64,000 nucleotides of DNA from NCBI RefSeq assembly GCF_003018255.1, contig NZ_CP027440.1, one strand, 5' to 3'. The position numbers and the translations under genes are program-made. Numbering within the stretch: position 1 is the stretch's first letter; the number at the start of each line of letters is the position of its first letter. Below are positions 17,676 through 18,105 of the stretch, in pieces. The stretch comes from Escherichia coli. GTDB taxonomy: Bacteria; Pseudomonadota; Gammaproteobacteria; Enterobacterales; Enterobacteriaceae. The notes below the pieces were generated by a model that did no database searches, was not told the DNA's origin, and saw nothing but the letters and a program-made list of their open reading frames with translations.

Positions 17676-18105
17676 CTGCACAGGGCGCGGAGTACCGCGC
17701 TCTGTTTAACGATACAGTATCTCTCCATAAGATAAAATATTGCTATATTCTTCTGGGTAATTCCCTCCTGATTTAGCATGTTATATCGCGTTATTTCGCT
17801 GCTTTCGAAATAACGCATCGATTTAATTTTCACACTTCCCACCAGAATTATACTCACGCTAACAATCATTATTCTGCTTAGTAAAAAACGCGTAAATATT
17901 TTGCGCCAAAATGTGGCGCATGTTTCATTTTCGCACCATTGCGGGGCGCTGTTTTTATTATTTCCTGTCTACACTCAGCTTATTGCGACGCGAAATCGTG
18001 CGCAAAAGCTGGCACTACTTTTGCTTATAAGAGGATGGCCACAGACAGGTAAAAGACGTTTCCCAAACGTCCTATAACGATAATTTTCGCCTCACAGGAA
18101 GCATT

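Follow-up and report, generated by a model that had tools for sequence, protein, structure and literature searches.

Two palindromes upstream of yhdWXYZ in Escherichia coli: one within a probable NtrC/sigma-54 control region, the other a probable lineage-specific quasi-palindrome

The 430-bp spacer that precedes yhdW, in the yhdWXYZ transporter operon of Escherichia coli, contains two perfect inverted repeats and raises the question of what, if anything, they do. We have considered this spacer, at positions 17676-18105, within a stretch of 64,000 nucleotides (the window) from contig NZ_CP027440.1 of assembly GCF_003018255.1. An initial annotation, made from the letters of the sequence, thought both repeats more like binding sites for dimeric regulators than terminators and knew of no described regulator for the operon. 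The reading that we consider probable is that the spacer is made up of two parts. The first, from approximately 17899 to 18105, is the NtrC/sigma-54 control region of the promoter yhdWp and includes the second of the two repeats (palindrome 2). The other, 17676-17898, is fast-evolving, and the repeat that it contains (palindrome 1) is most likely without a conserved regulatory role. The regulatory arrangement as such was already known; what is added here is a probable placement of the NtrC sites at the level of individual bases.

Both repeats are present as described, palindrome 2 without the 1-nt offset that had been allowed for, and the spacer is indeed AT-rich (41.6% G+C, compared with 50.0% for the whole window). 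Palindrome 1 occupies 17788-17816 and consists of the arms GCGTTATTTCG (17788-17798) and CGAAATAACGC (17806-17816), which are complementary at all 11 positions and enclose the 7-nt loop ctgcttt. Palindrome 2, at 17902-17920, is smaller: the arms TGCGCCA (17902-17908) and TGGCGCA (17914-17920), complementary at 7 of 7 positions, flank the 5-nt loop aaatg. First-order Markov shuffles lead one to expect about 0.2 palindromes per 64 kb with perfect arms of at least 11 bp and loops of 3-10 nt, and 17% of the shuffles contain at least one, so palindrome 1 is only mildly improbable. For arms of at least 7 bp the expectation is about 35 per 64 kb, and palindrome 2 is therefore unremarkable as a bare palindrome; its significance comes from its position and its conservation only. 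The two parts of the spacer can be told apart within the species. Among five E. coli strains, 2 of the 207 sites of the promoter-proximal part (1.0%) are polymorphic, compared with 22 of the 223 sites of the distal part (9.9%), a density greater than the 4.1% found in the coding sequence of yhdV, the gene upstream.

The position of palindrome 2 is best described relative to the sigma-54 promoter yhdWp, CTGGCACTACTTTTGCT, which is found at 18009-18025 on the + strand with the -24 GG and -12 GC elements in place and a transcription start near 18036. It matches TGGCAC-N5-TTGCW exactly at 18010-18025, with the GG and GC ten bases apart, and is the sole match to TGGCAY-N5-TTGCW in the window. Its 17 bases are identical to those of site OS34 from chromatin immunoprecipitation sequencing (ChIP-seq) of sigma-54, a confirmed promoter the start of which lies 70 nt before the ATG of yhdW (PMC4591121). 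The same promoter is bound by the sigma-54 holoenzyme in genomic SELEX (gSELEX; PMC8743547), is listed in the sigma-54 promoter set of RegulonDB (PMC3118216), and has previously been used as a promoter of the NtrC class (PMC7045595). For NtrC itself, ChIP-seq of nitrogen-starved cells gave a peak that was assigned to yhdWXYZ (PMC4066584), yhdW, yhdX, and yhdY are grouped with rutA-G in an NtrC iModulon (PMC11748552), and the operon has been described as NtrC-regulated (bioRxiv 10.1101/770727). Mapped through the promoter coordinate, the published 80-bp bin of the NtrC peak falls at 18023-18103 of the window. It is offset downstream from the candidate sites described below by the same distance that separates the glnALG bin from the classic NtrC sites of glnAp2, and the two loci therefore behave alike. 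Binding of Lrp to yhdWXYZ has also been reported from chromatin immunoprecipitation (bioRxiv 10.1101/276808), and regulation by ZraSR has been claimed (bioRxiv 10.64898/2026.05.04.722672). Given these reports for NtrC and sigma-54 (PMC4591121, PMC4066584, PMC11748552), Lrp, and ZraSR, the operon is not without described regulators, and the earlier statement to that effect is out of date.

Where, then, might NtrC bind? To place its sites, 17-mers were scored against the NtrC consensus TGCACCAnnnTGGTGCA, as quoted in PMC8743547, so that the scores given here are matches to a consensus and not to a position weight matrix. The comparison set was made up of eleven NtrC-dependent sigma-54 promoter regions of MG1655, in which every upstream 17-mer was scored. 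The textbook NtrC sites of glnAp2 lie at -140 and -108, and the scan recovers both, with matches of 13/14 and 12/14, respectively. At the accepted promoters of glnK, rutA, ddpX, astC, and argT, the best matches are only 9-11/14, a range within which the 10/14 found at yhdW falls. That score is reached by two 17-mers upstream of yhdWp: site A, TGCGCCAAAATGTGGCG, at 17902-17918, the center of which lies at about -126 from the sigma-54 start, and site B, CGCACCATTGCGGGGCG, at 17932-17948, centered at about -96. Site A is composed of the left arm of palindrome 2, the spacer between the arms, and, of the right arm, the four innermost bases. Palindrome 2 itself begins 108 bp and ends 90 bp upstream of yhdWp, and each of its arms is a 6/7 match to an NtrC half-site, but the gap between the arms is 5 bp rather than 3. 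Within the core GCAnnA...TnnTGC, site A has a G in place of the expected T14. The centers of both sites fall in the range usual for NtrC enhancer sites, roughly 80-150 bp and sometimes more upstream of a -24/-12 promoter, where at least two sites on one face of the helix are required for oligomerization. Sites A and B are the sole pair of matches of at least 10/14 that lie 25-36 bp apart in the window, where 0.15 would be expected per 64 kb, and the pair is situated directly upstream of the window's only sigma-54 promoter.

The conservation of the region in related bacteria settles the register of this arrangement. A search with YhdW led to 80 loci (L001-L080) from Escherichia, Citrobacter, Enterobacter, Kosakonia, Cedecea, and other genera, and the sigma-54 promoter is kept in all 79 of the related loci that have enough upstream DNA. 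An ungapped alignment of 70 columns, comprising 75 distinct sequences of the Enterobacteriaceae, covers both NtrC-like sites. In site A the conserved columns are T9, G10, C11, C13, T19, G20, T21, G22, G23, and C24, and in site B they are G40, C41, A42, C43, C44, G51, G53, and C54, with GCACC and G.GC invariant or nearly so. The invariant columns coincide with positions of the NtrC consensus, and the mean match to that consensus over the 75 sequences peaks at 8.9/14 at 17902 and at 9.8/14 at 17932, against about 3/14 elsewhere. As for palindrome 2, the TG of its spacer is invariant, the outer GCA of its right arm is poorly conserved, and Watson-Crick symmetry at 7 of 7 positions is found in just 2 of the 75 sequences (mean, 4.2/7), perfect symmetry being limited to E. 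coli. A pair-count test detected no covariation between the arms (at least as large a paired fraction occurred in 131 of 500 shuffles), and the pair formed by columns 12 and 24 is broken in 56 of 74 sequences; without covariation, the arms are not those of an RNA hairpin. The conserved unit is the 17-mer at 17902-17918, not the 19-bp palindrome. Palindrome 2 can therefore be regarded as one half of the enhancer, in a form peculiar to E. coli that became perfect by accident.

The spacing of these elements is also conserved. The centers of sites A and B are 30 bp apart in all 75 sequences, as the absence of gaps from the alignment requires. Site B lies 77-79 bp from the promoter in 35 sequences and 88-90 bp from it in 49. 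These two classes are about one helical turn apart, and all of the change in length falls between a conserved box, CCTGTCTACACTC, and the promoter. From the separation of the two classes, by some 11 bp, it appears that insertions and deletions have been accepted in whole helical turns only. Such a face-of-helix constraint is what the looping of an enhancer to its promoter predicts.

A mechanism can be proposed on this basis. Under nitrogen limitation, phosphorylated NtrC dimers would bind the two weak sites cooperatively and, the sites being three helical turns apart, the bound protein would oligomerize. It would then loop to the sigma-54 RNA polymerase at 18009-18025 and drive formation of the open complex, with transcription proceeding from near 18036 through a structured 5'-untranslated region (5' UTR) into yhdWXYZ. 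The bases contacted would be exactly those of the candidate 17-mers A and B, a placement derived from sequence comparison.

The closest known system to the yhdW control region is the enhancer and promoter of glnAp2. Both have two 17-bp dyads of the NtrC type about three helical turns apart (30 bp at yhdW, 32 bp at glnAp2) and some 100-140 bp upstream of a -24/-12 promoter (the centers are at -126 and -96 in yhdW and at -140 and -108 in glnAp2, the positions having been computed with one script), and for both loci occupancy by NtrC and by sigma-54 has been published. They differ in that the yhdW sites are much weaker, at 10/14 each compared with 13/14 and 12/14, in the replacement of TGGTGC by TGTGGC in site A, and in the presence at yhdW of the extra box CCTGTCTACACTC between enhancer and promoter. 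In the strength of its sites, yhdW is more like rutAp, glnKp, ddpXp, and astCp2, where the best NtrC matches, at 9-11/14, are as weak, and rutA-G belongs to the same NtrC iModulon as yhdW. The positions of the sites vary within this group, however, and those of astC lie at about -233 and -253.

Palindrome 1 presents a different picture. Its distance upstream of the transcription start is about 234 bp, which places it in the fast-evolving half of the spacer, and among the five E. coli strains 2 of its 29 sites are polymorphic, a density equal to that of its flanks. The segment is unalignable outside Escherichia, for which reason no outgroup alignment could be made, and in none of the 76 non-Escherichia loci does the motif TTTCG-N5-9-CGAAA occur within 450 bp upstream of yhdW. 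Within the genus, the core of the right arm, CGAAATAAC, is constant except in one enterotoxigenic E. coli (ETEC) strain, and the left arm drifts. Among three divergent Escherichia lineages, L001 has TTATTTCG-aacctt-CGAAATAA, with arms of 8 bp and a loop of 6 nt; L002 has one mismatch in arms of this type (7/8), and in L003 8 of 10 positions are paired. In these three loci all of the changes are on the left arm and none is compensated. The O157 strains have GTG for GCG, and the ETEC strain has CAAAATAACGC. Adjacent to the palindrome, at 17780-17799, are the tandem 10-mers GTTATATCGC and GTTATTTCGC, the second of which provides most of the left arm. At this point 11 nt are missing from L001 and L002, and L003 has a duplicate with a different spacing.

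Correction of quasi-palindromes by template switching, and tandem duplication, are familiar events in intergenic DNA. Palindrome 1 resembles the products of such correction in that one arm is constant and the other varies with lineage, in that it is perfect in one lineage, and in having the tandem 10-mer beside it; it differs in that its history has to be reconstructed from eight sequences only. The most economical reading is of a lineage-specific quasi-palindrome that was perfected by local duplication and template switching, the mutational mechanism being one that we infer, and palindrome 1 would on this reading be neutral. The whole of palindrome 1 and the perfect symmetry of palindrome 2 are recent features, at the level of the genus and the species. 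The proposal of dimeric-regulator sites rather than terminators is thus borne out in part for palindrome 2, which overlaps a conserved 17-bp dyad of the NtrC type and has arms that do not covary, although the unit is not the 19-bp palindrome that was proposed. For palindrome 1 it is not. The initial annotation had named lack of conservation in close relatives and lack of a match to any regulator site as grounds for abandoning the proposal, and this is largely what was found: palindrome 1 is absent outside Escherichia, is degenerate in divergent lineages, and matches none of the operators that were tried. All of this matters little beyond annotation. It may help in the dissection of yhdWXYZ, a transporter for which links to antibiotic homeostasis and to colonization of the gut were recently reported (bioRxiv 10.64898/2026.05.04.722672): the segment to work on is 17899-18025, and palindrome 1 would be a poor first target.

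Several observations weigh against this division of the spacer into an NtrC/sigma-54 control region and a part without a conserved role. Single matches of at least 10/14 to the NtrC consensus occur at chance frequency, with 37 seen in the window and 28 expected, and sites A and B reach only 10/14. The non-consensus TGTGGC of site A is invariant at a place where NtrC prefers TGGTGC, and could represent either a tuned low affinity or contact by another protein. In the searched text of the gSELEX study of NtrC alone, the yhdV/yhdX spacer is named in the tables for the RpoN holoenzyme only (PMC8743547), and no NtrC footprint on DNA of the yhdV-yhdW spacer was found in the literature. On the side of palindrome 1, the inverted repeat TTATTTCG...CGAAATAA is found in two structural contexts, formed with the second copy of the 10-mer in E. 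coli and with the first in L001, and its persistence could be a sign of weak selection for dyad symmetry.

The last of these points is relevant to the alternative that survives best, in which palindrome 1 is the operator of an Escherichia-specific dimeric regulator that acts either on yhdWXYZ or on a weak sigma-70 promoter at 17827-17854, relative to which the palindrome would be centered near -60. The regulator might be of the LysR type, since TCG-ctgcttt-CGA provides a T-N11-A core. In favor of an operator are the perfect 11-bp arms, with their expectation of about 0.2 per 64 kb, the retention of the dyad in L001 despite the 11-nt indel, and the presence 11 bp downstream of a sigma-70-like TTTTCA-16-TATACT. 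Palindrome 1 also stands alone among the long palindromes of the window in not being terminator-like. The six other perfect palindromes with arms of 10-13 bp (6346-6370, 17211-17236, 22283-22308, 36798-36825, 38476-38505, and 47164-47193) all have the A-run, G+C-rich stem, and T-run of bidirectional intrinsic terminators, a layout from which palindrome 1 differs; that at 17211-17236 follows acrF. Against these must be set the absence of the element from all other genera, its imperfection in L002, L003, O157, and ETEC through one-sided changes that are uncompensated, and a density of single-nucleotide polymorphisms no different from that of the flanks. The sigma-70-like match is of a kind that occurs at chance frequency (3 found, 1.8 expected), and other Escherichia lineages do not retain its -10 element. 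The fit of T-CGCTGCTTTCG-A to the LysR-type motif is by inspection, a motif this loose is not diagnostic, and neither a cognate LysR regulator nor a conserved promoter was found for palindrome 1.

The search for a known operator at palindrome 1 gave no better result. It resembles the operators of the ROK-family regulators NagC and Mlc in being a 23-bp, AT-rich quasi-palindrome with outer TTATTT/AAATAA, and such an operator was considered and rejected. The only invariant positions of NagC/Mlc operators are TT and AA at -6,-5 and +5,+6 (PMC4288165), and about its center, at 17802, palindrome 1 has TC at -6,-5 and GA at +5,+6, so that its T and A blocks are 11 bp apart and not 9. Comparison by eye with the consensus sequences of Fur, Zur, ArcA, ModE, IHF, and Lrp around palindrome 1 gave poor matches. 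A metagenome scan for TTATTTCG-N5-8-CGAAATAA returned 80 unrelated environmental loci, none of them like the E. coli locus; with no shared flanks and with loops spread over 5-8 nt, these are chance matches. An operator at palindrome 1 is, on balance, doubtful.

The second alternative starts from conserved elements that might point beyond NtrC. One of these is the near-invariant box CCTGTCTACACTC at 17964-17976, between the NtrC-like sites and the promoter, which is conserved at 85-95% or more over 83 upstream sequences from almost all of the genera sampled and is better conserved than the NtrC-like sites. Its distance from the promoter falls into classes of 41-43 and 52-54 bp. Within the box is TCTACACT, similar to a -10 element of the sigma-S/sigma-70 type that has a C at -13. 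Comparison of the box with the IHF consensus by eye gave no match; it could be a second promoter that NtrC at site B occludes, or a place where a DNA-bending or other protein binds. Downstream of the start, at 18055-18071 on the + strand (+20 to +36 of the sigma-54 transcript), the 5' UTR contains the stem-loop GACGTTT-CCC-AAACGTC, the stem of which covaries over the Enterobacteriaceae: five of its six pairs are changed on both sides, in 22 such cells, and none of 500 shuffles reaches the observed value. This test was made on a structure specified by hand, and it serves as a positive control for that of palindrome 2; RNAalifold predicted nothing in the yhdW 5' UTR segments. The stem-loop could be a stabilizer, or an element for control by a small RNA or of translation. 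It is followed by an invariant ATAACGAT, and in the Shine-Dalgarno region the sequence is CA-rich, most genera having CACACAGGA. Together with the TGTGGC of site A, the box and the covarying hairpin may constitute a second, undescribed conserved layer beside NtrC, consisting of an extra regulator or of an NtrC-occluded second promoter in the manner of glnAp1/glnAp2, to which palindrome 1 would perhaps have been added as an Escherichia-specific operator. We think such a layer unlikely.

It is more improbable still that a regulator other than NtrC binds palindrome 2, whether another activator of sigma-54 such as ZraR or a dimer that recognizes all 19 bp of the palindrome. The claimed regulation of the operon by ZraSR (bioRxiv 10.64898/2026.05.04.722672) would be consistent with the former, and the invariant, non-consensus TGTGGC and a conserved GGTT reach past a minimal NtrC box. 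The boxes of zraP and zraS, CGAGTAAAAATGACTCG, have GAGT/ACTC arms, however, and share with palindrome 2 only the A/T center, and yhdW is not listed in the studies of ZraR by gSELEX and by ChIP with exonuclease treatment (ChIP-exo). A dimer on the full palindrome is contradicted by the lack of conservation of the 19-bp symmetry. A ZraR site at palindrome 2, in the form of the CGAGT-N7-ACTCG dyad that is duplicated in the zraP-zraS spacer, was rejected: the arms GCGCC/GGCGC differ from it, and only the central AAAATG is common.

There is very little, finally, to recommend the palindromes as RNA hairpins, with palindrome 2 and a second hairpin at 17929-17946 as terminators or insulators against read-through from acrEF-yhdV and palindrome 1 as a stabilizer of 3' ends. 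Both 17902-17920 and 17929-17946 were flagged as terminator-like, with T-rich tails, in a consensus scan, and palindrome 1 folds with -14.4 kcal/mol (z = -3.9). Flags of this kind are at chance level, though (2 found, 1.2 expected), the + strand around palindrome 2 folds no better than its shuffles (z = -0.77), and the broken pairs of palindrome 2 are to be compared with the clear covariation of a true 5' UTR hairpin. The earlier remark that no T-run follows either palindrome is correct for palindrome 1, which has an A/U-rich stem and no adjoining U-tract, AUCGAUUUAAUUUU beginning beyond the stem, and is not entirely correct for palindrome 2, which is followed by TGTTTCATTT. An intrinsic terminator, in the sense of a G+C-rich stem followed by a U-tract and showing compensatory changes, was rejected for both palindromes. 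A search of Rfam with 17300-18300 gave no family match, only two sub-threshold chance matches. Moreover, yhdV already has a strong hairpin of its own, at 17680-17705 on the + strand and directly 3' of the stop codon. Its G+C-rich arms, ACAGGGCGCGG and CCGCGCTCTGT, enclose a 4-nt loop; the RNA folds with -20.5 kcal/mol (z = -4.45) and is followed by TTT in the window and TTTTT in K-12, and the hairpin is probably the yhdV terminator. A dispersed repeat resembling repetitive extragenic palindromic sequences or bacterial interspersed mosaic elements (REP/BIME) can be dismissed for palindrome 1, which is single copy: in 5355 E. coli genomes, a 56-nt query centered on it matched at a median of one place each.

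The window matches E. coli chromosomes from end to end, and the locus is the acrF-yhdV-yhdWXYZ region; a 1-kb query over the spacer region is 99.9% identical to its best match and 98.1% identical to a derivative of MG1655. In matching E. coli records, the RefSeq annotation places acrF upstream and yhdX downstream of the yhdV-yhdW pair and gives yhdV (17454-17675) as the gene for a small membrane lipoprotein. The open reading frame of yhdW (18106-19131, + strand) encodes the periplasmic amino-acid-binding protein of the YhdWXYZ ATP-binding cassette transporter, in agreement with the same annotation; it is intact in the window, at 341 amino acids, and is annotated as frameshifted in MG1655 (K-12). 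From about 18173 onward, the MG1655-derived record no longer keeps the register of the other four E. coli sequences, which is consistent with the annotated frameshift. Two further features of the spacer may be recorded. In the distal part, the segment CTAACAATCATTATTCTGC at 17860-17878 holds AATCATTAT, which agrees in part with the right half of a Fur box; the full 19-mer matches the Fur box at about 12 of 19 positions by eye and is kept in Escherichia only. Directly upstream of the -24 element, at 17983-18006, is an inverted repeat, TTGCG...CGCAA, the ends of which are conserved across genera; its interior varies in sequence and length and often forms a small hairpin of its own.

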